64,000 nt of DNA from an uncultured Solirubrobacterales bacterium (lineage in GTDB: Bacteria > Actinomycetota > Thermoleophilia > Solirubrobacterales > Solirubrobacteraceae). The stretch lies in assembly GCA_963709225.1 (NCBI GenBank), contig CAVPVM010000002.1, positions 527,168 through 591,167 on the forward strand. Direction: 5' to 3'. The position numbers were made by a program, and so were the translations under genes. Of the stretch, positions 5,182-64,000 are shown piece by piece; the first letter of the stretch is position 1; each line of letters starts with the position of its first letter. The notes beneath the pieces are model-generated. The model had not been told where the DNA came from. It saw only the letters and a list, made by a program, of their open reading frames with translations, and did not search any database.

Positions 5182-5273
5182 CCAGCTGGGTGCACCCCGT
5201 TCGGGGCACAGGCATGCACCCGGCTGGGAAACGGCGCATGCGCCGTTTCGCGGGACGGTGCATGCACCGTCCC
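5182..5273. repeat. cluster of three tandem palindromic (REP-like) elements with GCATGC core
   Basis: Perfect 22-nt palindromes gaaacggcGCATGCgccgtttc (5228-5249) and gggacggtGCATGCaccgtccc (5252-5273). They are preceded by an interrupted copy, ccagctgggtgca...tgcacccggctgg (5182-5227). The cluster sits between convergent stops at 5172 and 5289. Confidence 0.75.
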
Positions 5274-5288
5274 GAACAACCCCTCTGA

Positions 5289-6101
5289 CTAGAGCCCGTA
5301 CGGGTGACGCAGCACGAAGCCGGGATTCGCCGGGCGCAGCGGGCGCCAGCGGGGGCCCTGCTGATTCGACGGGTCGTCGGCGGTGCTGGTGTCCAGGCGC
5401 AGGCCGGCGATGTCGAGGTAGGCGTGGCCGGCATTGGTGAGGATCGTCATCCACTCGCCCTGGCCGCTTGCGCCCCAACTCTCGAACTGGCCGGAGTCGA
5501 GCGGCTTGCGCAGCAGAGCCCCGCCGTGCAGCGCGTAGGAGACGGTGCCGGAGCAGTCGTAACCGTAGGACTTGAAGGAGGCGTGGCCGCCGCCGTATAC
5601 GTAGGGCCGTCCGATGATCTGGTTGGCCGCCCAGATGATGCGGTCGACGACCAGCGGCGCCTCCTCGGGAGCGGCGGCGATCCCGTTCACGATCTCGGCG
5701 GTCGCGCCGGGCACGACGAGGTGCGGCAGGCCCGGGATGCCGGCGACCGTGCCGCCGCTGACGTCGGCGGCCTGCGTCTGCGGGATGTAGGGGGTCAGCT
5801 CGCCCGTCGGGGCTTCGACGAAGACCGGGCCGTCGTAGGCGAGGCTGGGCGACTGGCCCTTGGCGAGGGTGATCGGCGCGAGCGGAGCGGTGAGCGCACT
5901 CTCCGGTGTGGCCGCACCGGCCGTTCCGGTCGTACCGGTCGTGCCGGTGGCGCCAGTCGCGCCGGTCGGGCCGATGTTCACGGGTGCGGTGGCGCCGCCA
6001 ACTGCAGTTCCGCTGGGAGGGGCCTCGGCAGCGGCCTCGGCGGCGAAGGCCCCCAATGCCAGCAATGCACTCCCCAGCGTGCAGACGTGACGCAGCCGCA
6101 C
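5289..6101 (-). CDS. secreted NlpC/P60 family cell-wall peptidase
   Basis: GTG start and signal peptide (LGSALLALGAFAAEA). Catalytic region GRPYVYGGGHASFKSYGYDCSGTVSYAL. Contains a Gly-X-Y tract. Confidence 0.85.
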   Translation of the reverse strand: MRLRHVCTLGSALLALGAFAAEAAAEAPPSGTAVGGATAPVNIGPTGATGATGTTGTTGTAGAATPESALTAPLAPITLAKGQSPSLAYDGPVFVEAPTGELTPYIPQTQAADVSGGTVAGIPGLPHLVVPGATAEIVNGIAAAPEEAPLVVDRIIWAANQIIGRPYVYGGGHASFKSYGYDCSGTVSYALHGGALLRKPLDSGQFESWGASGQGEWMTILTNAGHAYLDIAGLRLDTSTADDPSNQQGPRWRPLRPANPGFVLRHPYGL

Positions 6102-6114
6102 ATCGACCTCTCTC

Positions 6115-6245
6115 TGAAGCCTGCCGGGTTAGCTGACGGGCTCGCGCTGAAAGAGCAGCGCGTCTCGCGGGACCACCGCGAAATTCGCCCCAACAACTTG
6201 GTTCCCCGGTTCCCTGGCTTCTGGCCAGGGATTCGGCGTGTGGCG
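6115..6245 (-). promoter_or_regulatory. ydaO/yuaA-type (c-di-AMP) riboswitch in the NlpC/P60 leader
   Basis: The minus-strand leader reads GCCGAAUCC-hairpin-GGGGAACCAAG-UUGUU-GGGGCGAAUUUC-long hairpin-CCCGUCAGCUAACCCGGCAGGC. This matches the conserved ydaO blocks AAUC, GGGGACCCA, GGGGUGAAUC and CCGUCAGCUAACC, with closing helix GCCG/CGGC. It ends about 15 nt before the GAGAGAGG RBS and the GTG at 6101. Confidence 0.8.
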
Positions 6246-6407
6246 GCAATCTAGCACTCTGGACCGATGGGTGGGGAAATTTGCGCTCCCCGATGCCTAA
6301 AAGCCGCAAATTGCCCGATCGCGTCAGTGAGACGCCGCAACCGAGCCGCGCGGACGGGGCAATACGATGCGCTCTGGCCGGGGGCAACGCACGAAAAGGA
6401 GACGCCG

Positions 6408-7172
6408 ATGTGCCATGAGCTGGATTCTGAGCCGCCGATTCCGGCGATCGCCGGGGCCGCGATCTCGCACGAGGATCTCGTGCTCGAGGCCGCGGACGGC
6501 AATCGCTTCGCCGCCTTCCTCGCCACGCCCGATGAGCCCTCGGCCGTCGGCATCGTGATCCTCCCCGACGTCCGCGGGCTCTACCACTTCTACGAGGAGC
6601 TGGCGCTGCGCTTCGCCGAGCGTGGCGACGCGGCCCTCGCGATCGACTACTTCGGCCGCACGGCCGGCGTCGCCAAGCGCGACGAGAGCTTCGACGCGAT
6701 GGAGCACACGGCGCAGACGACGCCGGAGGGCGTGCAGGCCGACATCGCCGCGGCGGTCGCCTACCTGCGCTCGCCGGCCGGCGGCTCGCGTCGTGCGATC
6801 TTCACCGTCGGCTTCTGCTTTGGCGGCGCCAACTCCTGGCTCGCCGCCGCGGGCGGGCACGGCCTCGCGGGCGCCGTCGGCTTCTACGGCATGCCGGGAC
6901 CGCGCGGTGAGCGGCCGGGCCCGATCGATGCGGCCGCGCGAATCGCCGCTCCGATCCTGGCGCTCCAGGGGGGCGCGGACGCGCACATCACGGCCGAGAT
7001 CAACGAGGCCTTCGACGCGGCGCTCGCCGCCGCCGGCGTCGAGCACGAGGTCGTGACCTTCGACGGAGCACCGCACAGCTTCTTCGACCGCCGCCACGAG
7101 GAGTTCCAGGCCGCGTCCGACGAGGCCTGGCAGCGCACGCTCGACTTCATCGACGCCCACAGCGGCGCCTGA
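6408..7172 (+). CDS. dienelactone hydrolase family protein
   Basis: AAAAGGAG RBS before ATG 6408. Nucleophile motif GFCFGG; C-terminal FDGAPHSF. Confidence 0.85.
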   Translation: MCHELDSEPPIPAIAGAAISHEDLVLEAADGNRFAAFLATPDEPSAVGIVILPDVRGLYHFYEELALRFAERGDAALAIDYFGRTAGVAKRDESFDAMEHTAQTTPEGVQADIAAAVAYLRSPAGGSRRAIFTVGFCFGGANSWLAAAGGHGLAGAVGFYGMPGPRGERPGPIDAAARIAAPILALQGGADAHITAEINEAFDAALAAAGVEHEVVTFDGAPHSFFDRRHEEFQAASDEAWQRTLDFIDAHSGA

Positions 7173-7355: not shown

Positions 7356-9482
7356 ATGAGCACGATCCAGTCACTCGACACCGCGCCGGCGATCGGCACC
7401 CGCTGGCGCCTGCGGGCGCGCGACGCCGCAGGCGAGGCTCGCTGGGTGCGCCCGGCGCTGATCACCCTGCTGGTGCTGACCGCCGTCGCCTACCTGTGGA
7501 ACGTCGGCGCGTCCGGAGATGCCAACAGCTTCTACGCCGCCGCCGTGCAGGCCGGGACGCGCAGCTGGAAGGCCTTCTTCTTCGGCTCGCTGGACTCCTC
7601 GTCATTCATCACGACCGACAAGACGCCGGCCTCGATCTGGGTGATGGCGCTGTCGGGGCGGATCTTCGGCTTCAGCAGCTGGAGCATGCTCGTGCCGCAG
7701 GCGCTCGAGGGCGTCGCCGCGGTGTGGCTGCTGTTCGCCGCGGTCAGGCGCTGGTTCGGCCCGGTCGCCGGTCTCGCCGCCGGGGCGATGCTCGCGCTCA
7801 CGCCGGTTGCGGCGCTGATGTTCCGCTTCAACAACCCCGACGCGCTGCTGGTCGCGGCGCTGGTCGCGGCCGCCTACTGCCTGACCCGGGCGCTCGAGGC
7901 GGCGCGCACCCGCTGGCTCGTTGCGGCCGGTGCGCTGATCGGCTTCGCGTTCCTGGCCAAGATGGGACAGGCCTTCCTCGTGCTTCCCGCGTTCGGTCTG
8001 GTCTACCTGCTCGCCGCGCCGACCACCCTGCGGCGGCGGATCAGCGGCCTGCTCGCCGGCTTCGCGACGATGATCGTCGCCGGCGGCTGGTGGGTCGCGA
8101 TCGTGGCCCTGTTGCCGGCAAGCTCGCGACCGTACATCGACGGCTCGCCCGACAACAACATCTTCAACCTGATCTTCGGCTACAACGGCTTCCAGCGGCT
8201 GTTCGGCGGCGGCGGAGGGCCCGGCGGCGGAGGTGGCGGCGGCAGCAACTTCAGCGGCGCGACCGGCACGCTGCGCCTCTTCAACTACCTGATGGGCGGT
8301 CAGGCCTCCTGGCTGCTGCCCGCGGCGCTGATCGCGCTCGCGGCCGGGCTGTGGCTGACGCGCCGCGCACCGCGCACCGACCGCACGCGGGCGGCCCTGC
8401 TTCTGTGGGGCGGCTGGCTGCTCGTGACGGCTGCGGTCTTCAGCTACTCCTCGGGCGTCATCCACACCTACTACACGGTCGCGCTCGCCCCGGCGATCGC
8501 GGCGCTGGTGGCGATCGGCGGCGTCCAGCTGTGGCGGCGGCGTGAGTCGCTCGCGGCGCGCCTGACCGCCGCCGCGGCCGTCGCGGTCACGGGTGGCTGG
8601 TCGTTCGCGCTGCTCGACCGCACACCCGACTGGCAACCGTGGGTGCGAGTACTGGTCGCGGCCGCGACGGTGATCGCGGTGGGCGTCCTGATCGCCGGGC
8701 CCTCGCTGGCTCGCTTCGGGCGTCGCGCCGGGGTCGTCGCGATCGCGGCTGTCGCGATCGCCCTGCTCGGTGGACCGGCCGCGTACGCGCTGCAGACGAT
8801 CAGCACCACCCACAGCGGCTCGATCCCCTCGGCGGGACCGACGGTCGCCGGCACCGGCGGCGGCCCGGGCGGCCTCGGCGGTGGCCCCGGCACCGGCGCG
8901 CGCACCGGCGGATCCGCGACCGGCCAGAGCCTCTTCGGCCCGGGCGCCGGCCCGGGAACCTCGGGGACCCCGCCGCAGGGCGCCGCAGGGCGCGCGGGCG
9001 CTCTGCCCGAGGGCGGCCCGCCCGCCGGGACGGCAGCTGGACCCGCGGGCGCGGGCGCTGCCGGCGGCTTCCCCGGCGCAGCGTCCGCCGGCGGCGCGCG
9101 GCTCGGCGCTGGTGGCGGCGGGAGCGCGACGGTCAGCAGCACGCTCGTCAGGGCACTGGAATCGGACGCGTCCTCCTACCGCTGGGTGGCCGCGACGATG
9201 GGCTCGACCAACGCGGCGACCTATGAGCTGGCCAGCGGCGGAGAGCCCGTGATGGCGATCGGCGGCTTCAACAACAACGGCGGCCTGCTCAGCCTCGCGC
9301 AGTTCATCCGCTACGTGAAGGCCGGCGACATCCACTACTACATCGCCTCCGGCGGCGGCGGCGGTGCCGGGCCGAACGGCGGCACGGCCTCCTCGAGCAC
9401 CGACGAGATCTCGAGCTGGGTCGCCGCGCACTACAGCGCGGAGACGATCGGCGGCGTCACCGTCTACGACCTCACGAAGTAG
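7356..9482 (+). CDS. glycosyltransferase family 39 (ArnT/PMT-like) membrane protein with Gly/Pro-rich linker and C-terminal domain
   Basis: N-terminal motif SFYAAAVQAGTRSWKAFFFGSLDSSSFITTDKTPASIWVMAL and many TM helices. Low-complexity G/P/A tract, then a soluble C-terminal domain. Confidence 0.85.
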   Translation: MSTIQSLDTAPAIGTRWRLRARDAAGEARWVRPALITLLVLTAVAYLWNVGASGDANSFYAAAVQAGTRSWKAFFFGSLDSSSFITTDKTPASIWVMALSGRIFGFSSWSMLVPQALEGVAAVWLLFAAVRRWFGPVAGLAAGAMLALTPVAALMFRFNNPDALLVAALVAAAYCLTRALEAARTRWLVAAGALIGFAFLAKMGQAFLVLPAFGLVYLLAAPTTLRRRISGLLAGFATMIVAGGWWVAIVALLPASSRPYIDGSPDNNIFNLIFGYNGFQRLFGGGGGPGGGGGGGSNFSGATGTLRLFNYLMGGQASWLLPAALIALAAGLWLTRRAPRTDRTRAALLLWGGWLLVTAAVFSYSSGVIHTYYTVALAPAIAALVAIGGVQLWRRRESLAARLTAAAAVAVTGGWSFALLDRTPDWQPWVRVLVAAATVIAVGVLIAGPSLARFGRRAGVVAIAAVAIALLGGPAAYALQTISTTHSGSIPSAGPTVAGTGGGPGGLGGGPGTGARTGGSATGQSLFGPGAGPGTSGTPPQGAAGRAGALPEGGPPAGTAAGPAGAGAAGGFPGAASAGGARLGAGGGGSATVSSTLVRALESDASSYRWVAATMGSTNAATYELASGGEPVMAIGGFNNNGGLLSLAQFIRYVKAGDIHYYIASGGGGGAGPNGGTASSSTDEISSWVAAHYSAETIGGVTVYDLTK

Positions 9483-9612: not shown

Positions 9613-11022
9613 GTGATCGCGGCCGAGTCCTCACAGGCGCGCCACCGTTCGAGCAGTCTCTGGCTCGACCGCTTCGACGGCTCACTCTCACCGCGCCCGG
9701 CACTCGCCGGGGACCTCCAGTGCGACGTCGCGATCGTCGGCGCCGGGTTCACGGGCCTGTGGACCGCCTACCACCTCGCGACGCTGCAACCCGACCTGCG
9801 AGTCGTGGTGATCGAGCGCGAGATAGCCGGCCACGGCGCGTCCGGGCGAAACGGCGGCTGGGCGATCGGCGGCCTCTCCGGCACCCCCACGGCCTACGGC
9901 TGCGCGCCCGGCGACGAGCGCATCGCGCGGGCGCTGCGCGCGACCCACGAGGCGATCGATCAGATCGGCGCGATCGCCGCCCGCGAAGGCATCGACTGCG
10001 ACTTCGTCAAGGCAGGTGCGCTGACGCTCGCGACCAGCGCACCCCAGTGGCGCCGCCTGCAGGCCCGCGACGCCGACGCCGCCGCGGCGGCCGGCCACGG
10101 CGACTCCGACGGAGCGCTGCTGTCGGCCGCGGACGCCGGCGAGCTGGTCGCCGGCGTCCCCCGGCTGCACGGAGGGCGCTTCACGCCGCACGCGGCGCGG
10201 ATCGACCCCGCCCGCCTGGTGCGCGGACTCGCCGAGGCCTGCGAGCGCCGGGGCGTGACGATCCACGAGCAGACCGCCGCCAGCGCCATCGAGCGCGGCC
10301 GCGTGCGCACCACCCACGGTGTCGTCTCGGCCGAAGCGGTGATTCGTGCAACCGAGTCCTACACGACGCAGCTGCGCGGTGAACGCCTGCGTTACCTGCC
10401 GCTCTACTCGCTGATGATCGCCACCGCGCCGCTCGATCCGTCGGCGTGGGAGGAGCTGCGCTGGCGCGACGGGCTGCTCGTCGACGACCGCCACCACCTC
10501 TTCTTCTACGCCCAGCGCACCTCCGACGGACGGATCGCGATCGGCGGCCGCGGCGCCCCCTACCGGCTGGCCCGCCCGATCGACCCGGCCAACGAGCGCA
10601 ACGAGGGCGTGCGGGCGCGACTCGTTGCGACGATCGCACGAACCTTCCCGGCCGCCGCCACCGCTGAGATAACCCACCACTGGGGAGGCCCGCTCGCCGC
10701 GCCGCGCGACTGGAGCATGAGCGTGAACTTCGACCGCACAACCGGCGTCGGCTCGGCCGGCGGCTACACCGGTCACGGCGTCGCCGCCGCCCAGATCGCC
10801 GGCGCGACGCTCGCCGATCTCGTGCTCAGCCGCGACAGCGACCTCGTCACGCTGCCGTGGGTCGGGCACCGCAGCCGTCGCTGGGAGCCCGAGCCGCTGC
10901 GCTTCCTCGCCTCCCGCGCAATCGTCGGGACGCTCGGCGCGGCCGACCGCCGCGAGGACCGGACCGGGCGCCCCGACCCGCGTGTGCGGTTGCTGCGACC
11001 GTTCCTGCCGCCGGCGCACTGA
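9613..11022 (+). CDS. FAD-dependent oxidoreductase (DAO family)
   Basis: GTG 9613; dinucleotide fold DVAIVGAGFTGLWTAYHL; ASGRNGG motif. Confidence 0.8.
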   Translation: MIAAESSQARHRSSSLWLDRFDGSLSPRPALAGDLQCDVAIVGAGFTGLWTAYHLATLQPDLRVVVIEREIAGHGASGRNGGWAIGGLSGTPTAYGCAPGDERIARALRATHEAIDQIGAIAAREGIDCDFVKAGALTLATSAPQWRRLQARDADAAAAAGHGDSDGALLSAADAGELVAGVPRLHGGRFTPHAARIDPARLVRGLAEACERRGVTIHEQTAASAIERGRVRTTHGVVSAEAVIRATESYTTQLRGERLRYLPLYSLMIATAPLDPSAWEELRWRDGLLVDDRHHLFFYAQRTSDGRIAIGGRGAPYRLARPIDPANERNEGVRARLVATIARTFPAAATAEITHHWGGPLAAPRDWSMSVNFDRTTGVGSAGGYTGHGVAAAQIAGATLADLVLSRDSDLVTLPWVGHRSRRWEPEPLRFLASRAIVGTLGAADRREDRTGRPDPRVRLLRPFLPPAH

Positions 11023-56731: not shown

Positions 56732-56773
<42 letters not shown>

Positions 56774-58087
56774 ATGCCGATTCGGGAGTGCTGCCAGGTC
56801 CATTTGCAGGGATCTTCGTGCGCTGAGGTTCGCTCAGATACGTTCAGATTCGCGCAGTTCGCGACCTTTTTCGGGACCTAATGGCGCGAGCGCGGCGCCG
56901 CTCGATGAACAGGACGGTCCGCGATGCCGGCGCTCCGATTTGAGACGGGCGAGAGGCGGGCGCCGGCACTCGATCTGTCTACGTCCGGTCTCGCAGTGAC
57001 GCGTGACCACGACACCCAAACAGGGAACGTGTCGGCACTGCCGGATCGAGACGCGGGTGAGAGCGCCGATCTCCCCGCTGGGCTCGACGATGTGCTGGAT
57101 CGAGCGGGTCGTCTGCGCGGCGAGGCATCTGGGACGCAGCGAAGCCAGAAGCACCAGGTCGTGCCAACGTCGGAAGCGGTGACTGCCGGATCACGCGCCC
57201 CGCGCTCGACTGCGCGACGCCACCCCGACGCAACCGTCAATCACTCGGTGCTTGCGACCAGGCCGCGCAGCCATTCCTCGCCCGTGCCGAGACCGATCAG
57301 GTTAGCGGCACTGGCAATGGAACGGTGCTCGAATGGGATAGTGAAGTCGCGGGCTCTCGGCTCCGAGCTTCTGTACCGCGTTGAAGATCGCGACATGTTC
57401 GCTAGGCGGTCACGATCCATCTCGTTCTGCTTCGGCGCCGAGATGCCAACGCACCTTCGCGTCGTCGACTAGTTGTCGCTTAAGTCGTCGTGGGCGTCGT
57501 CGCTTGGTCCTCGTCGGCTCTCCATCGTCGCGGTCTGCGTACGGGGCCTTACGACTAGCAAAGAACCCGTCCGGGGACTGTGCAGCTGGACCGATCCGTC
57601 ATGGGCGGTTTGACATCGAGCGTGGCGGTCGGCAATGTCGGACTGGTCACTCCGGTCCAGGGGGCTGCGATGTCGAGGGCTCAGACGATGTCGGTTGGCT
57701 CAGGCGCCACGGCGCTTCTGCGCACCGGCCTCGGCACGGGCGCGCGGAGAATCGTGAGGGCGTCGCGCTGCATATCTCGATTCGCGTTAGCCGCGACTTA
57801 TCCCGATGTCGGGAGGTCCGGACGGGCGGTTTCAGCCACTGGCACCGATGCGTGTCGAAGGGTAGGCGCCCCCGCTCTATCACCGTCGCGGCTCTGCCAG
57901 GTACGCGTCACGGGTTCATGCGATGCGCCGACACGGACGGCGCCGCAATCTTTCCGAGGGTGCCGATCGGGGGGCGCCTCTGACTCGATGCGCTCGCGTC
58001 ACGGGTCCTGGCATCTAGACAACCATCCCGGCGCCGGGAGACGGCAGTCCTCAAACCTGCAGCGTCGAACGCTACTGATGTAGCAGC

Positions 58088-58720
58088 ATGACCGACGCGT
58101 ACAACAAGCGGACAATGACCGGCGGACGCGATCTTGAAGCGTTGCCACCACCGGCAGCCGATCGAGCCTCAGTTGCGACGTCTGCCGTTTCGTGGGCGCC
58201 GATTTGTGAACTGACGCCCCACCTGTGGATGGAATACGGACAGCGCTTGCGACGCCTGGGCCCTGGCGCGAACTGGTGGGTCGGCGATTGGATTCGCTAT
58301 GGCAACGCGCGGTACGGCGAACGCTACAAACTTGCTACCGAACTCACGGGCTACGACACCCAGACGCTCAGGAATTTTGCGTACGTTGCGTCTCGGTTCG
58401 ACACCGCGCGGCGCCGCACGGAGGTGTCCTGGAGCCACCACGCGGAAATCGCCGCGCTCGGGGCCGACGCCCAACGGCGCTGGCTGGACCGCGTGGTTGC
58501 AGAGCGACTATCGCTGAGGAATCTACGGCGTGAACTGCAGGCGGAACGCAACACTGCGCTGGGGGATTCGACCGCGCGGTGCGCTCCCGGACCACAGCGC
58601 GAGCCGGAATCGGCGACGACGTGCCCCACCTGCGGGCAGTCGATGCCCGGATTTCAGCGGGATAAAGGACGCCAGCGGAGCACGGATCAAACTAGATCCG
58701 AGGACGAGCCTCTTCGATGA
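58088..58720 (+). CDS. LmbU-family-like regulatory protein
   Basis: NWWVGDWIRYGNARYGERYKLATELTGYDTQTLRNFAYVASRFDTARRRTEVSWSHHAEIAAL matches the pattern I recall for LmbU-type regulators (WW.GDW..YG..Y, L.N...V...F...RR..L...HH.E.A.L). Confidence 0.6.
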   Translation: MTDAYNKRTMTGGRDLEALPPPAADRASVATSAVSWAPICELTPHLWMEYGQRLRRLGPGANWWVGDWIRYGNARYGERYKLATELTGYDTQTLRNFAYVASRFDTARRRTEVSWSHHAEIAALGADAQRRWLDRVVAERLSLRNLRRELQAERNTALGDSTARCAPGPQREPESATTCPTCGQSMPGFQRDKGRQRSTDQTRSEDEPLR

Positions 58721-58917
58721 GACGTTCGACTCAAGATGGCTGACACCTTGAAAGAACTTGCGCCCCCAAGACCCGCGACGACCACGGAAAACATGTTGCG
58801 GTTTGGGCTTCGTTCGGCGGGGCTCGCGCGTCGGCGACGATCAGCTCACGCGTCACAGATCTGGGCGTTGTGCCCCTATGTGTGTAGGGCCCCGCTGTCA
58901 GCTGGAACGAGGCCGAG

Positions 58918-59463
58918 TTGGCGTTGAGCAATGACGATGTGGAGCGCCTGTACCGCGCGCATGCGCGATCGCTGTTGGCGTTCCTTGCGCGTCGCGTGCT
59001 GGTAGCGGAGGTGGCTGTGGACTTGATGGCTGAGACGTTTGCGCAGGCGTATCGGGATCGCCGTCGTTGCCGCGCCAGCGACGACCAGGAGGCGTTGGCG
59101 TGGATCTTTGGTATCGCTCGCCATTGCCTGTCGGGGTACCTCCGTCAGGGTGCGGCCGAGCGGCGTGCGCTGCGCCGCCTCGGCGTCGAGCCTCGCGCGT
59201 TGCACGATTTCGAATACGACCGCATCGACGAACTCGCCGGCTTGCACGACATCGTCAGCGAGCTTCGTGACGCGTTCGACCAGTTGGACGACGAGCAGCG
59301 CGACGCGATCCGCCTGCGGGTGATCGAGGAGCGGCCCTACGCGGAGGTTGCGCGCGAGCTCGGGCTGAGCGAGCAGACCGCCCGCGCGCGGGTCAGCCGG
59401 GCCCTGCGTGTCCTGCGCGAGTCGCAGCCGATAGCTGAAAGGAGCGAGATGGATCATGTCTGA
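58918..59463 (+). CDS. ECF-type RNA polymerase sigma factor
   Basis: TTG start. Region 2 is LLAFLARRV ... DLMAETFAQAY. Region 4 is EQRDAIRLRVIEERPYAEVARELGLSEQTARARVSRALRVLRE. Confidence 0.85.
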   Translation: MALSNDDVERLYRAHARSLLAFLARRVLVAEVAVDLMAETFAQAYRDRRRCRASDDQEALAWIFGIARHCLSGYLRQGAAERRALRRLGVEPRALHDFEYDRIDELAGLHDIVSELRDAFDQLDDEQRDAIRLRVIEERPYAEVARELGLSEQTARARVSRALRVLRESQPIAERSEMDHV

Positions 59464-60355
59464 CGCAGCGTTTGGGGCGGAGCTGCCGATCGTCGATGAA
59501 GTCGGCGCCGCGCTGCATGCCGCGGCGGTCAAAGCAGACCAGGCCAGCCCCGCTCGTCGATCGCTTCGCGCGCTCGGGCGCTGGCGTCACGGTCCACTTG
59601 TCGTCGCGTTTCTTGTGACGGCGGCCTCAGGCACCATGGGCGGCCTCGCTCTGGCCGGCACGTTCAGTGGGACGACGATCAATCCCCAGGCCTGGGTCAA
59701 CGGGCAGCGCGTGACGCCCGAGCCGGCAGCCACGCCTGATCAGGCGGCCGCCCTGGCGATCCTCGAGCGCCCCCGTGTCGCCGCCGACGCGCTACCGCCC
59801 TATTACAGCATGGTCCTGCCGAACAGTCCGACCGGCGGCGGTGACGGCGTCAACATCGCACTCTCCCGCCGTGCATACGGGTTCAGTAATGGCGCCGCAG
59901 CCTGGGTGATACCCGGCAACGACGACACGGTCTGCCTGGTCGCAGCCAACGCCCAAGCAGTCGAGCAGGCAGACGAAACCGGACCGCTCACGCACATTTC
60001 CGGAGCAGCGGATTCGGTCAACTGCGAGCCGCTCGCGATCGTCGACAGCGGCTGGCCGCTGAGCTACAGCGTCGGCCCCGGCGACACCCCGGGCTTGTTC
60101 TTCACCGCAGGCATCGTCCCCAACGGCGTCCAGCACGTCACCGTCGGGACCTCATCGGGTCAGTCCGTCTCGCTTCCGGTTCACGACAACGTCTGGCTCG
60201 GAAACGTCGCGGGCGTGCCCGACACCGAGACGTTCAACGGACCTGATGGACCGGTAACCAGCGGAGACGTAACCAGCGCCGCACCCCGACAGAAGTCCCA
60301 GCGGCAGGGACCCGCCTCGAGGGCGAACGCTGCCGCGGCGTCTGCTACCCCCTGA
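59456..60355 (+). CDS. membrane-anchored protein, family A copy 1 (anti-sigma-like position)
   Basis: Overlaps the sigma gene by 8 nt. About 55 cytoplasmic aa and one TM (LVVAFLVTAASGTMGGLALAG). The external domain shares LAILERP, WVIPG..TVCLVA, NC and GIVPNGVQHVTV...LPVHDNVWLG with copies 2 and 3. Confidence 0.7.
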   Translation: MSDAAFGAELPIVDEVGAALHAAAVKADQASPARRSLRALGRWRHGPLVVAFLVTAASGTMGGLALAGTFSGTTINPQAWVNGQRVTPEPAATPDQAAALAILERPRVAADALPPYYSMVLPNSPTGGGDGVNIALSRRAYGFSNGAAAWVIPGNDDTVCLVAANAQAVEQADETGPLTHISGAADSVNCEPLAIVDSGWPLSYSVGPGDTPGLFFTAGIVPNGVQHVTVGTSSGQSVSLPVHDNVWLGNVAGVPDTETFNGPDGPVTSGDVTSAAPRQKSQRQGPASRANAAAASATP

Positions 60356-60754
60356 GGACGTGTCGCGACGCTCGACGGCCTCGCCGCGAAGACCTAGCAC
60401 AACAGCGCCACCGCGTGCCCAAGTGCCGCAGCAGCGCGCGATCAGACGACAACTGGCGTCGCGTCTGCGCTCACCGCGCAAAACATTCGCCCCGTGCGTC
60501 CGGTCGGCGCCTACCAAAACACGTCGCCGTTAGTGCTCCGTCGGCACAGCCGCCGCGTCGCGCTCGCTTGACTCCACTTTGCGCCTTTCCGGCACGCGTC
60601 GTAATGCCCGCAACTGGCCGGCGATGTGAGGTAACGTCCCGATGCCGGAAGCAGTGTGAACACCATGTTGCTCGGTTTGACGTGCGACGTCCGCTCCTCT
60701 TACATATAACCACTCATAGACGTAGAACGCGTATATCCTTAGCGAGGTGACTAG

Positions 60755-61213
60755 ATGCATGCAAATCACAAGCCGCCGCAACGAACCTTTCGCAGACTAA
60801 CTGCGCTCCTGAGCGCAGCAGCCGCGCTAGCAGGCGGCGTCTTGTTTCTTACGCTCGCGCCCGCAGCTGAAGCTAACAGTGGCTGGGATTTTTGCCTCGC
60901 ATACCCATTGTCCCCGGGGACGACCTGCTGGAGCAGCGTATTCGGAACCGAGTACACAGTGTACGAGACGGAAGGATGGGACGCCAACGGGTCCGGGGCC
61001 GGAAACTGTAACGGCATCGGCCTGGCCGGCTACGGCAATGGAACAAGCAGCTGGGCGACATATGCGTGCATTGGTGACGGCACCGGCTACGACGCGGTGT
61101 ACGACACGGGTCTAGCTTGGCAAGGTGGCGGCTACTTCTTTGTGCACGACCACAGCGGTACGAAATCAAGCGATTTCACCGGCTGGATGTACTGGAGTGG
61201 ACCGCAACCGTGA
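60755..61213 (+). CDS. small secreted Trp/Gly/Tyr-rich four-Cys protein, family B copy 1
   Basis: GAGGTG RBS. Signal peptide with an RR (TFRRLTALLSAAAALAGGVLFLTLAPAAEA). The mature protein of about 112 aa has 4 Cys and 7 Trp and ends in GWMYWSGPQP. Confidence 0.7.
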   Translation: MHANHKPPQRTFRRLTALLSAAAALAGGVLFLTLAPAAEANSGWDFCLAYPLSPGTTCWSSVFGTEYTVYETEGWDANGSGAGNCNGIGLAGYGNGTSSWATYACIGDGTGYDAVYDTGLAWQGGGYFFVHDHSGTKSSDFTGWMYWSGPQP

Positions 61214-61287
61214 TGCGCGCACTAGCTTTCCGAGGTCCTACGCAGCACCGCAACGTGTCTACGCAAGAAGGGTGTGGGTGTTAGCCA

Positions 61288-61998
61288 ATGGTTCGTTTTC
61301 AAACGTGCGCCGGGTTTTGCGGCCGGCGCAAGCGCACGGTTTTTGCAGTAAGCATCGCCGCAAGCTTGGCCGGACTAGGCGCTACTGTCGCCGTTGCGGC
61401 TCGAGCGAGTAGCTCAACGCCAACGGCGTCAACCAGCGTTGCCGCCAACGACAACGGCGCGTGGGGGCAGGGAGTAGCGTCATCTCCCGATGCGGCAGAT
61501 GCTGCGGCGTTTGCCATTCTAACCCGTCCGGCCGCGGCTTCGGACGCTGTGCCGGCAGACGAGTCGGTCGGGCTACCAGAGGGCTCGTTCGTTGGACTGT
61601 TCGGAGCAAATCTGGAGCTGTCTCGGGCAGCAACGGGCTTTACGAGCGGCGGCGCATGGGTCGTGCCGGGCAGTGGAGCCATGTGTCTCGTAGCCGACAG
61701 CATGTACGCCCCCGGCGCAAGCCTTCGAACACTTGAAGGTGGAGCGGCTTGTGTGACGGATGCGCGTGCGCTTCGAGGAGGACTTGAGTTCACGGTTCAC
61801 AACGAGGACAACGCCGGGTACGAAACGCTGGCAGGACTCGTGCCGAATGGGGTCCAGCAGGTCACGGCGGAACTAGGCGGCGGCGAAACAGTCCAACTTC
61901 CTGTGTTCGACAACGTGTATTTAGGACATATCGCGGGAGCGGCAAGCGCTGTTACGTTTACCGACGCAAGCGGCACAACCATCACTCAATCGACGTAA
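61288..61998 (+). CDS. membrane-anchored protein, family A copy 2
   Basis: TM FAVSIAASLAGLGATVAVAA. Shares FAILTRP, WVVPGSGAMCLVA, AC and GLVPNGVQQVTA...LPVFDNVYLG. Confidence 0.7.
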   Translation: MVRFQTCAGFCGRRKRTVFAVSIAASLAGLGATVAVAARASSSTPTASTSVAANDNGAWGQGVASSPDAADAAAFAILTRPAAASDAVPADESVGLPEGSFVGLFGANLELSRAATGFTSGGAWVVPGSGAMCLVADSMYAPGASLRTLEGGAACVTDARALRGGLEFTVHNEDNAGYETLAGLVPNGVQQVTAELGGGETVQLPVFDNVYLGHIAGAASAVTFTDASGTTITQST

Positions 61999-62077
61999 AC
62001 CGCCAACCCTTTGCGCAGCAGCAACTCGCACCGTGGCTTGCGGCTAAGCGTCACGTAATGGAAGGAACAGGCTCGTA

Positions 62078-62611
62078 ATGCACAGACACTTACCCAACCG
62101 TCGCACCGCCGGCGCGCAGCGTGGCTTGCATAAGCTTCGACATGCGGGCGCAGCGATGGTGACCACGTGCTTCGTTTTGCTGGGTCTTGCTGTGATACCT
62201 ACGCTAGCAAGCGCGTATACGTATAATGACACCTGGGAAGTAAACGCCACCAATTTTGAATCCAACGGTAATGTGCTGTTTAGCGATCCCTGCGTCGGCG
62301 GCGACAGTTTTGCTAACTACTACGTGGGCTCGTCGTGCCAGTGGGGCGGAGCCGCATGGCAGTATCACAACTGGACGGCTGGAGAGGTCGAACAGCTTTC
62401 CACGCGGTCTATCGAGGGGCTTGGACTCGCGGTCAGCAAGAGCAACCTATCCGAACCGTGGTCGACGTGGTTTCCGGAAAGCGGACAGTACGACACGCTT
62501 TTTTCTACGGTGCCCGGTAGCTACGACCCGGACAACGTCGCAGTTGGAGTGGAGTGGCTTTGCGGCTCTGGATGCGGAAGCGATCTACTTTGGGGATGGT
62601 CGGGGCAATGA
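62078..62611 (+). CDS. small secreted Trp/Gly-rich four-Cys protein, family B copy 2
   Basis: GGAAGGA RBS and signal peptide ending TLASA. The mature protein of about 130 aa has 4 Cys and 9 Trp and ends in LLWGWSGQ. Confidence 0.7.
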   Translation: MHRHLPNRRTAGAQRGLHKLRHAGAAMVTTCFVLLGLAVIPTLASAYTYNDTWEVNATNFESNGNVLFSDPCVGGDSFANYYVGSSCQWGGAAWQYHNWTAGEVEQLSTRSIEGLGLAVSKSNLSEPWSTWFPESGQYDTLFSTVPGSYDPDNVAVGVEWLCGSGCGSDLLWGWSGQ

Positions 62612-63324
62612 TCAGAGGCAAGGTTTTCTTTCGACGTCTTTCAGATCACCCGCGCCGCCTTGCGAGTTTTCGCCGAATTCTGGCCATTGCAGTTCCTTGT
62701 GGAGGACTAGCAGTGGGCGTTGTTGTCCATGCCGCGGCAGCGACCGCTCCGCATAGCGACCAAGGCCGCGCTGGACATTCGACGCGCAAGGCGGCCATCG
62801 GCATGGACGCTTACCCTCAACAGGCGAGTCTGTTTCTTGCGCTGCGCCAGCCGGCTAGCACTCCAGCTCCGTCATTGATGGCGCTTGCGGAGGAAATGGC
62901 CGCAGCGGACGGACAGTCGCCGTCACCCTCAGGGCTTCAGCCGACTCTATTGAGAATGGTTTACGCGGACGGAGACACGATCAGCGACATTCTGCCGACG
63001 ACTCGCGGCGTATGCCTGGTCGCCGTGGTCGGCGGAGCCGGTATCGGAGCATGCGCGTCAACAGCTACAGCCGCGCAGAACGGAATTGTGGTGCAGCAAA
63101 ACGACGGCCAGAGCAGCGTTGTTGTCGGCGTACTTCCAGATGGCGCGACTGATGCGACCATCGAGATCTCGGGCGGTAGTGAGTTGGCGGTTTCTCTGAA
63201 CTCGGAAAACGGCTTTGCGATGCCGGTTGACCAACCAAAGGCATTCGCTTACAGCGATGACGGATCGGTGCACACGGTCGACCTCGAATCTTCGTCAGTG
63301 GCCACGAGTGCGCAGCAGGGTTAG
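62608..63324 (+). CDS. membrane-anchored protein, family A copy 3
   Basis: ATGA overlap with B copy 2. TM ILAIAVPCGGLAVGVVV. Shares LFLALRQP, GVCLVAV, AC and GVLPDGATDATI...AVSLNSENGF. Confidence 0.65.
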   Translation: MIRGKVFFRRLSDHPRRLASFRRILAIAVPCGGLAVGVVVHAAAATAPHSDQGRAGHSTRKAAIGMDAYPQQASLFLALRQPASTPAPSLMALAEEMAAADGQSPSPSGLQPTLLRMVYADGDTISDILPTTRGVCLVAVVGGAGIGACASTATAAQNGIVVQQNDGQSSVVVGVLPDGATDATIEISGGSELAVSLNSENGFAMPVDQPKAFAYSDDGSVHTVDLESSSVATSAQQG

Positions 63325-63554
63325 GGTGGCGGCGGAGGGTAGGGAAGCCGTTGCTCGGCGCACTTGGTTGCACGCGGCGCCTGGCAGTCTCACCGTCTTC
63401 GCGTCGCGGCGGCTGGGGGGCTACTTAGGTGGCGCGCAGTGAGACAGTGGACGCTTTCGGTAGGCTTCAGCTACGCATCGGAGATGCTTTGTGCTGCTGG
63501 CGCCTCCGAAGGCCGCGAGCACATTGCACCAATGCGGACTAGAGGCTTTACATC

Positions 63555-64000
63555 ATGTTTGTTTCGCGGACAAAGCAGCTGGACGGACGACCTGCGGGAC
63601 CCATCTTGAGCGATTTGTCTGGCGACGCGGCGACCCAGTTGACCGAGGCGCAGCGGCTCAAGCGGCGCCGCCGCCGGGTGGGTTTTGGCGCGGTCGTCGC
63701 GGTCCTCGTGACGGGACTCCTGGTGTACGCGCTGGGCTTTCAAGCCGGGCCTAAGAAGACATCGGACTCGGCGGGCAGCGCGGGGGTAGCTAGATCCACC
63801 CAGACGCTGGCGCAGTGTGCCGAGACGTGGAACCAGGCCCCGCTCGGCAACGGACGCTCGCTCGCGAACGCGGCAGCCGGCGACGGCCCGGACGCATTGA
63901 TGTTCGCGTCCAGCGATGGCGTTTGCGGCGTTGCGTTTCCTTCGAGCGTGTCCGCAGCCACAGGGTTAGTTGCCGTCTTCGTGAGCGAGGTTGGCGGCGA
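63555..64000 (+). CDS. membrane-anchored hypothetical protein (3' end beyond window)
   Basis: Hand translation from ATG 63555 is open to the window end: MFVSRTKQLDGRPAG ... KRRRRRVGFGAVVAVLVTGLLVYALGF ... DALMFASSDGVCGVAF. It is not in the supplied track because no stop falls inside the window. Confidence 0.5.
   Translation, partial: MFVSRTKQLDGRPAGPILSDLSGDAATQLTEAQRLKRRRRRVGFGAVVAVLVTGLLVYALGFQAGPKKTSDSAGSAGVARSTQTLAQCAETWNQAPLGNGRSLANAAAGDGPDALMFASSDGVCGVAFPSSVSAATGLVAVFVSEVGG

Follow-up and report, generated by a model that had tools for sequence, protein, structure and literature searches.

A candidate ECF sigma/anti-sigma module with an undescribed extracytoplasmic domain, next to paired secreted and membrane proteins, on a low-GC genomic island

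Introduction

By which kind of protein is an extracytoplasmic function (ECF) sigma factor controlled when the gene that overlaps its own encodes a membrane protein outside the known anti-sigma classes, and how are the secreted and membrane proteins encoded further downstream related to this control? The question is raised by a gene cassette at the end of a 64,000-nucleotide stretch of DNA (contig CAVPVM010000002.1, positions 527,168 to 591,167; this whole stretch of 64 kb is referred to as the window). The cassette encodes, all on the + strand, a sigma factor, three proteins of one membrane protein family (family A; A1, A2 and A3) and two small secreted proteins (B1 and B2). Its map is based on a listing of the open reading frames (ORFs) and their translation, by which the gene order given in an earlier sequence-only reading (sigma, A1, gap, B1, A2, B2, A3, gap, another anchored protein) is confirmed. 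The high GC content and the relatives from the Solirubrobacterales suggest that the window belongs to this order.

The sequence-only reading had regarded both protein families as unassignable and had proposed that B and A are an effector or ligand and its membrane partner, duplicated in tandem under a dedicated sigma factor. The analysis described here makes it probable, with considerable room for doubt, that the cassette is an ECF sigma/anti-sigma module in which a domain that has not been described before, the A domain, is the extracytoplasmic sensor, and that this module lies beside two sigma-free A copies, each paired with a B protein. The cassette seems to be a novel form of a signalling module that is familiar from bacteria, and not a new type of system.

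Results

The sigma factor and the promoter of its relatives

The sigma gene (58918-59463, + strand) has a TTG start codon and encodes a protein of 181 amino acids (aa) without a C-terminal extension. This protein matches the Pfam families Sigma70_r2 (E-value of 2.8e-7), Sigma70_r4_2 (6.7e-14) and Sigma70_r4 (2.2e-12), and scores 61.6 bits against TIGR02937, the NCBIfam model of the sigma70-ECF superfamily, which has a cut-off of 42.9. By these matches the gene product is assigned to the ECF (group 4) sigma-70 factors; its closest solved relative is SigL, found with an E-value of 1.3e-5 only.

The hexamer GTCACA is present upstream of 16 of the 24 distinct related sigma genes, as compared with a mean of 0.59 and a maximum of 4 in shuffled sequences, and in most of the upstream regions that carry it, CGT(T/C/A) is found 16-17 nucleotides (nt) further on. 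The strict bipartite motif occurs in seven of these 24 regions, where 0.044 would be expected. The conserved promoter of the relatives, as seen ahead of the sigma genes in the loci L016-L037, reads GGTCACA-N16/17-CGT(T/C/A). Since the sigma start codon is located 25-32 nt past GTCACA in most relatives, leaderless transcripts are suggested for most of these genes. The candidate ECF-type promoter in the window (58852-58885, + strand) has GTCACA at 58852-58857 and a leader of about 35-40 nt; its -10 element is uncertain, there being no clear CGT at the usual spacing.

Family A is large and has no annotation

A1 (59456-60355, + strand, 299 aa), A2 (61288-61998, + strand, 236 aa) and A3 (62608-63324, + strand, 238 aa) are three copies of one family, each with one transmembrane segment, as had been proposed. 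A1 and A2 match each other in BLASTP with an E-value of 4e-25. A3 is divergent, and its pairwise match is marginal (6e-4); it is recognised by the family profile at 9e-29, the values for A1 and A2 being 1.1e-62 and 9.9e-62, respectively. The single hydrophobic segment starts at residue 48 in A1, at residue 18 in A2 and at residue 24 in A3. It is followed by an ectodomain of about 170 aa with the sequence blocks F..LRRP...D..P, GAN..LARRA, AWVVPG.G..CL, a second cysteine, AGLVPDGV and V(H)DNVY. The second conserved cysteine had been noticed before; across 139 family members, two cysteines are nearly invariant, and this agrees with a domain that is exported and contains a disulfide bond.

When 1.84 billion cluster representatives (clusters at 50% identity) are searched exhaustively with a profile of the family, 1519 clusters are retrieved at E-values of 1e-3 or lower, and 245 clusters at 1e-10 or lower. 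Word-indexed searches return 3-6 proteins per query, to which a query with the 76-sequence full-length alignment adds little, and a scan of a genome collection with a narrow peptide pattern returns three loci only, all from Solirubrobacterales metagenome-assembled genomes. No match of A1-A3 is found in Pfam, NCBIfam, PADLOC or PHROGs, Pfam detects no meaningful domain in 76 sampled family members, and the family profile finds nothing among the PDB sequences. A literature search for such a module in Solirubrobacter or Conexibacter yielded nothing relevant. Judged from the profile searches, family A is a large unannotated family. The description as unassignable is therefore correct as far as the current libraries go, although A is not peculiar to this island. 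A phage-borne nature of the cassette was considered and dropped, as a scan of viral contigs finds no relative.

The AlphaFold2 model of residues 52-236 of A2, calculated with a 139-sequence alignment, has a predicted local distance difference test score (pLDDT) of 94.7 and a predicted template modelling score (pTM) of 0.90. In this model short helices are followed by about ten strands, and the predicted fold, together with the cysteine pair, fits an exported binding domain. When compared by Foldseek with PDB and BFVD, the model has no match at E-values of 0.001 or lower (the best TM-scores are about 0.29 and 0.27, respectively), such that the statement that A has no structural relative applies to solved (PDB) and viral (BFVD) structures. 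Weak matches to Ig/FN3-like domains are obtained with the C-terminal part of this model. Library searches and a fold comparison had been proposed as a check of both families; they leave A and B without a Pfam or NCBIfam match, and the A model without a neighbour in PDB or BFVD.

Two forms of family A and the probable anti-sigma role of A1

The N-termini of family A have a bimodal length distribution. Among 157 representatives there are 79 short-N copies, whose first hydrophobic segment begins no later than residue 28, and 43 long-N copies, nearly all of which have this start at residues 33-77; in P0008 and P0119 it lies beyond this range, and these are fragments or mis-started calls. The long-N copies have a conserved N-terminal helix of 14-18 residues that is not present in the short-N copies. 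Its amphipathic motif, DF(L/F)DRLG.EL.RA or LPI(V/I)(D/E)E(I/L)G.AL..AA, is followed by an Arg-rich stretch. A1 is a long-N copy, in which 47 cytoplasmic residues, including the conserved helix ELPIVDEVGAALHAAAV, precede the transmembrane segment and the A ectodomain. A2 is a short-N copy, with an N-terminus of 17 residues, a signal-anchor or signal peptide and the A ectodomain; A3 is also of the short-N form.

In the loci that were fetched, 21 non-redundant A genes directly follow an ECF sigma gene, either adjacent to it or overlapping with it. The distance between the sigma stop codon and the transmembrane segment of A is 90-165 nt (30-55 residues) in these 21 cases. In the window the overlap between the sigma gene and A1 is 8 nt, as can be read from the sequence and as the sequence-only reading had it, and the same 8-nt overlap is found for a distant long-N member (P0152, locus L038), which also follows an ECF sigma gene. 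The helix motif is confined to the sigma-adjacent, long-N copies. The locus L019 (1-9727) has five ECF sigma genes in less than 10 kb, three of which are then followed by a gene that matches the A profile, and L030 (1-6044) has three sigma-A pairs. These arrays indicate a strong paralogous expansion of the sigma-A pair in some genomes, and the family is therefore also a general regulatory family in these genomes.

By its position and topology, A1 is probably an anti-sigma factor, although not one of a known class. The sequence-only reading had pointed out that A1 occupies the position of an anti-sigma factor, and this suggestion gains weight from the 21 sigma-linked cases and from the helix motif of the long-N copies. 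It had also noticed the missing HxxxCxxC zinc motif; indeed, the A1 N-terminus contains no cysteine at all, and A1 has no match at E-values of 1 or lower with a class I anti-sigma domain (zf-HC2, RskA or related Pfam families) in Pfam or NCBIfam. The conserved helix of A1 would be the part that binds the sigma factor.

A different explanation is that A1 is a co-transcribed envelope protein, that all A and B proteins are structural or adhesive cargo of a mobile element, and that the sigma factor is regulated in another way. This agrees with the very short cytoplasmic part, which matches no known anti-sigma domain, with the weak Ig/FN3-like matches of the C-terminal part of the A model, and with the promoter signature, which is shared with ECF41, whose members function with no anti-sigma factor (PMC3426412). 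However, the sigma factor, with its 181 residues, does not have a C-terminal regulatory extension of the ECF41 kind, and the L019 and L030 arrays behave as paralogous regulator pairs. A purely structural role is further weakened by the N-terminal helix being restricted to sigma-adjacent copies, and this explanation is considered unlikely.

In a neighbour-joining tree of the ectodomains most sigma-linked copies, including A1, are in one clade, most B-linked copies, including A2, are found elsewhere, and A3 is on a divergent branch. Because the sigma-linked and B-linked ectodomains are mostly in separate clades, the sigma and B roles of A appear to be old and not the result of a local duplication.

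At least three types of B proteins

B1 (60755-61213, + strand, 152 aa) and B2 (62078-62611, + strand, 177 aa) are secreted proteins that are alike in position, size, secretion signal and composition, the mature proteins having four cysteines each and seven or nine tryptophans. The signal peptide of B1 ends with AEA, before NSG, and its mature part of about 112 aa contains the four cysteines. The signature of the B1-type sequences after the signal peptide is SGDFC..L.PG.TCWG...ETE.W...G.G.C.G...W..AC.GD..GYD.VYC...C...G..VHDHS....FTGW..WSG. Within this signature, VHDHS (residues ~127-134 of B1, in its mature part) is present in most B1-type sequences (alignment A11), while three fusion proteins (described below) have EDNS, EDAS or GNNS in its place; the motif is a possible metal-binding or ligand-binding site, although not a universal one.

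The B1-type profile (alignment A11) is matched by B1 at 1.3e-47 and is not matched by B2. In the BLASTP comparison of B1 and B2 only the signal-peptide region aligns (E-value of 0.017), the profile of ten B1-type sequences gives a score of -1.1 bits with B2, which is below that of shuffled controls (up to 9.3), and the profile-profile comparison (hhalign) gives a probability of 0.1%. There is thus no detectable homology between these sequences, and B1 and B2 are not one demonstrable family; the cysteine and tryptophan counts of the sequence-only reading are right, but its single family B does not hold. B2, which takes in front of A3 the position that B1 has in front of A2, has its matches only among the close relatives of this element (P0004, L013/L014). 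A third small, secreted, Cys/Trp-rich type (with the motif WYCG.LKG.GNWCG) is encoded in locus L039 (1949-2368). Searches of Pfam, NCBIfam, PADLOC and PHROGs with B1, B2 and ten B1-type sequences give no match, and a search of the PDB sequences with the B profile gives nothing.

B proteins are paired with, and fused to, short-N A proteins

With the profile of the B1-type sequences only, a B1-type gene is found directly upstream of every short-N A gene in eight non-redundant loci besides the window (L001, L013, L020, L023, L024, L025, L027 and L033). The two genes often overlap as TAATG or ATGA, and for the nine non-redundant A genes that follow a B1-type gene the gap is mostly 5-51 nt. The overlap between the B2 stop and the A3 start in the window is also ATGA, as had been described before. 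The third type behaves likewise: its gene in L039 precedes the short-N A gene P0150 with a 4-nt overlap, and the protein is 43% identical to the N-terminal domain (residues 1-130) of the fusion protein P0124.

Natural fusions, in which a B1-type domain is joined to an A ectodomain with no transmembrane segment in between, occur in five clusters (P0014, P0034, P0076, P0094 and P0138), and B1 is 49% identical to the N-terminal domain of P0014. The fusions P0076 (L018) and P0138 (L017) are encoded directly ahead of a sigma-A pair, in both cases on a long contig (short-read or JGI). Three anomalies in L007, which is 99.5% identical to the window, have been kept apart from these cases: a 431-aa A1 (5183-6478) and a B2-A3 read-through ORF (7968-9044), neither of which was counted as a fusion, and a frameshifted A2 (P0002; 7016-7600). 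These are most likely assembly indel errors or decaying copies.

As a rule, then, a short-N A protein pairs with a small secreted protein rich in cysteines and aromatic residues, for which at least three mutually unrelatable types exist, two of which are also found fused to A. The natural fusions argue strongly for a joint function of B and A outside the cytoplasm, and the functional B-then-A pair envisaged in the sequence-only reading gains firm ground from the eight loci, the five fusion clusters and the third type. Gene order and fusions suggest that B and A may form a complex.

It is conceivable that B is a secreted toxin or bacteriocin, that the short-N A is its membrane-bound immunity protein, and that A1 is a toxin-sensing anti-sigma factor by which immunity is induced. 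The B proteins are indeed small, secreted and Cys-rich, with at least three mutually unrelatable sequence types, their translation is coupled to that of a downstream membrane protein, and the module travels on integrative elements. However, B-A fusions are found in six clusters and with two B types, and a toxin that is permanently tied to its own immunity protein makes little sense. In addition, there is no match with lactococcin-972 or with another bacteriocin, toxin or immunity family in Pfam, NCBIfam or PADLOC, and export or processing genes are not adjacent. With the fusions and the lack of a toxin-family match this explanation is weakened to the extent that it is held to be quite improbable.

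How the parts may work together

In the mechanism that is favoured, A1 would be a single-pass membrane protein whose short cytoplasmic helix keeps the sigma factor at the membrane in an inactive state, with the ectodomain acting as the sensor. Once released, the sigma factor would transcribe its own operon from the GTCACA-N16/17-CGT promoter, as suggested by the presence of this motif in the relatives. A2 and A3 would be copies of the ectodomain that lack the helix for sigma binding and are either exported or attached to the membrane on its outer side, and each may form a complex outside the cytoplasm with the small protein encoded upstream of it, as suggested by the translational coupling and by the natural B-A fusions. 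The least secure step is that A1 would sense either B itself or whatever is bound by the B-A unit. Because the A domain is common to the sensor and the B-A units, this is the most economical link between them, and we infer possible cross-talk between the B-A units and A1 on this basis.

Several observations weigh against this mechanism. No Pfam anti-sigma family is found in 76 family A members or in 28 N-terminal segments, and a profile of 28 A N-termini finds no solved relative in the PDB. The ectodomain tree carries no bootstrap support. In the AlphaFold2 model of the natural fusion P0014, the B part has a pLDDT below 50, and no B-A interface can be seen in it. The motif scan finds no promoter motif upstream of B1 or A2. 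A GTCACG site is present 28 nt ahead of the B2 start codon, and this is too close to serve as the promoter for that start. Furthermore, the B-A pairs in L017, L018, L025 and L027 are located upstream of the sigma promoter, and L039 has a B-A pair with no sigma gene within 4 kb.

From the last two observations it follows that a B-A pair can work without the sigma module. When these are taken together with the missing motif ahead of B1 and A2, the control of the B-A units by this sigma factor is unproven, and the dedicated sigma factor over the whole cassette, which the sequence-only reading had proposed, is not upheld. This is also in agreement with the motif scan upstream of B1, A2, B2 and the last ORF of the window, which finds no convincing site, and with a crude bipartite k-mer search, in which these four regions have no shared promoter.

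The association between the two kinds of units is frequent and not strict. Of roughly twenty distinct loci, about eleven have a B-A unit beside a sigma-A pair, whereas the sigma-A pairs of L016, L019, L026, L028 and L030 have no B-A unit nearby. The co-occurrence of A and B in other genomes, anticipated in the sequence-only reading, is thus seen for B1-type proteins and short-N A proteins, but does not extend to many of the sigma-A pairs.

This distribution also bears on the possibility of a partner switch outside the cytoplasm, in which the short-N A proteins are decoys that compete with the A1 ectodomain for B, such that the balance between B and decoy sets the sigma activity. The sensor and the free copies share one domain, B is tied to the short-N A by gene coupling and by fusion, and the adjacency of the two units in about half of the loci fits such a competition. 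Nevertheless, a B protein that is fused to A cannot exchange freely, the sigma-linked and B-linked ectodomains are old, separate lineages that may not bind the same partner, and many sigma-A pairs have no B-A unit in their vicinity. A partner switch in this form appears rather improbable.

A wider proposal can also be made, namely that the A domain is the core of an unrecognised extracytoplasmic signalling system of soil Actinomycetota. In such a system, fast-diversifying secreted B proteins and free or anchored A proteins would act as ligand-receptor or ligand-decoy pairs, which are read by an A-domain anti-sigma factor with a minimal, one-helix sigma-binding region, a partner switch outside the cell that is often spread by tRNA-integrating elements. 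This proposal is speculative and is given a low likelihood; the more limited reading, a sigma/anti-sigma module beside sigma-free B-A units, is the one retained.

The element and the neighbouring genes

Across the cassette the GC content is lower (0.62-0.66) than in the part of the window further to the left (0.70-0.75). A 3' fragment of a tRNA-Met gene (56732-56773, - strand, 42 nt), reaching from the anticodon loop (CAT) to the discriminator base, is present at the point where the homology with the near-identical contigs L007 and L008 breaks (56770-56777), and on the far side of this break both contigs carry an integrase gene. The fragment is probably the remnant of an attachment site and the left edge of an integrated element, and the low-GC island of the sequence-only reading is borne out by these data. 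The alternative junction in L007 and L008 could correspond to an excised circle, a tandem copy or a different insertion. In L001 the cassette comes after a TrwC relaxase gene, in an element that has an integrase gene and a tRNA-Leu gene at its end, and in L018, too, the cassette is directly next to genes for an integrase and a tRNA-Leu. From the settings in the window, L001 and L018 it is concluded that the cassette is repeatedly the cargo of tRNA-integrating elements. ARAGORN and Rfam find no complete tRNA and no RNA family in the region.

The gene just upstream of the sigma gene (58088-58720, + strand) encodes an LmbU-family transcriptional regulator (NCBIfam NF038070, E-value of 1.9e-36, 125.6 bits with a cut-off of 125), and L007-L012 have the same 210-aa gene; in the near-identical copies of the element it is conserved at this place ahead of the sigma gene. 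It is regarded as a neighbour of the module. Two small ORFs without a family match (56924-57472 and 57580-58083) are located ahead of it, and all three genes are retained in near-identical copies of the element.

Between A1 and B1 there is a non-coding stretch of about 400 nt (60356-60754), in which no recognisable promoter, terminator or RNA family is found; in L013 its counterpart contains two small ORFs and an IS110 fragment. A generic scan for sigma-70 promoters and terminators gives hits at background level only. The last ORF (from 63606 to 64000, + strand) runs off the window and encodes a further membrane-anchored protein, which belongs neither to family A nor to the B proteins. In the identical contig L009 (6788-7747) its full length is 319 aa, and it has no match in Pfam, PADLOC or PHROGs. 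Further along the same element, L009 encodes a rhomboid-domain protein (9011-9397), about 2.2 kb past the end of the window, and an M48-family peptidase (10056-10697), about 3.3 kb past it. Membrane proteases of the rhomboid and M48 types could in principle cleave an anti-sigma factor.

Discussion

Family A, with at least 1519 clusters, has no Pfam or NCBIfam model and has a confidently predicted fold without likeness to PDB or BFVD structures, and the order of the genes connects it with ECF sigma factors in the Solirubrobacterales, a soil order with almost no experimental genetics. From the present analysis come the boundaries of the A domain and a diagnostic feature by which sensor copies can be told from free ones. 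It also yields a candidate for a minimal helix that binds the sigma factor, a promoter that is conserved among the relatives, and a partner protein family that is linked to A through natural fusions. If the anti-sigma role of A1 is true, the ECF classification would gain a further kind of short anti-sigma region as well as a new sensor domain.

The cassette shares several features with the classical pairs of ECF sigma and anti-sigma factors, such as SigW-RsiW, SigK-RskA and RpoE-RseA. The sigma factor has two domains, the overlapping downstream gene encodes a single-pass membrane protein with a predicted cytoplasmic N-terminus and an extracytoplasmic domain, and the promoter conserved ahead of the related sigma genes, of which the window has a candidate copy with an uncertain -10 element, would be consistent with autoregulation. 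Unlike in these pairs, the cytoplasmic segment has 30-55 residues, with one conserved helix, no zinc motif and no match with a Pfam anti-sigma family, and Pfam, PDB and BFVD contain no relative of the ectodomain. A class I anti-sigma domain has four helices and about 80-90 residues.

In the SigI-RsgI systems of Clostridium thermocellum the sensing modules of RsgI are of the same kind as those of the enzymes that are regulated. The occurrence of the A domain in a putative anti-sigma factor and also in separately encoded extracellular proteins resembles this arrangement, and here too the sensor and the separate proteins may share an external partner. The sigma family is a different one, however, the domains are unrelated, and the sigma-free A copies are at most putative members of the regulon.

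Three structural classes of anti-sigma domains are distinguished, and in class II, which includes CnrY and NepR, two helices form a clamp around the sigma factor (PMC6101532). Class II is the closest to the A1 segment in length, in that the sigma-binding region is comparably short. This likeness is by length alone; there is no sequence similarity, and only one helix is clearly conserved in the long-N A proteins.

The promoter points to yet another group. For ECF41 the promoter TGTCACA-n16-CGTC has been described as group-specific, and the sigma factors of this group have a C-terminal regulatory extension, no anti-sigma factor and COE genes as neighbours (PMC3426412). Nearly the same signature, GGTCACA-N16/17-CGT(T/C/A), is found in the relatives of the present sigma factor, whereas this protein of 181 aa ends just after region 4 and has a membrane protein gene next to it, with no COE neighbour. 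An ECF41-like promoter in combination with a membrane-partnered sigma factor raises the question of how promoter specificity and the mode of regulation have evolved separately in these groups.

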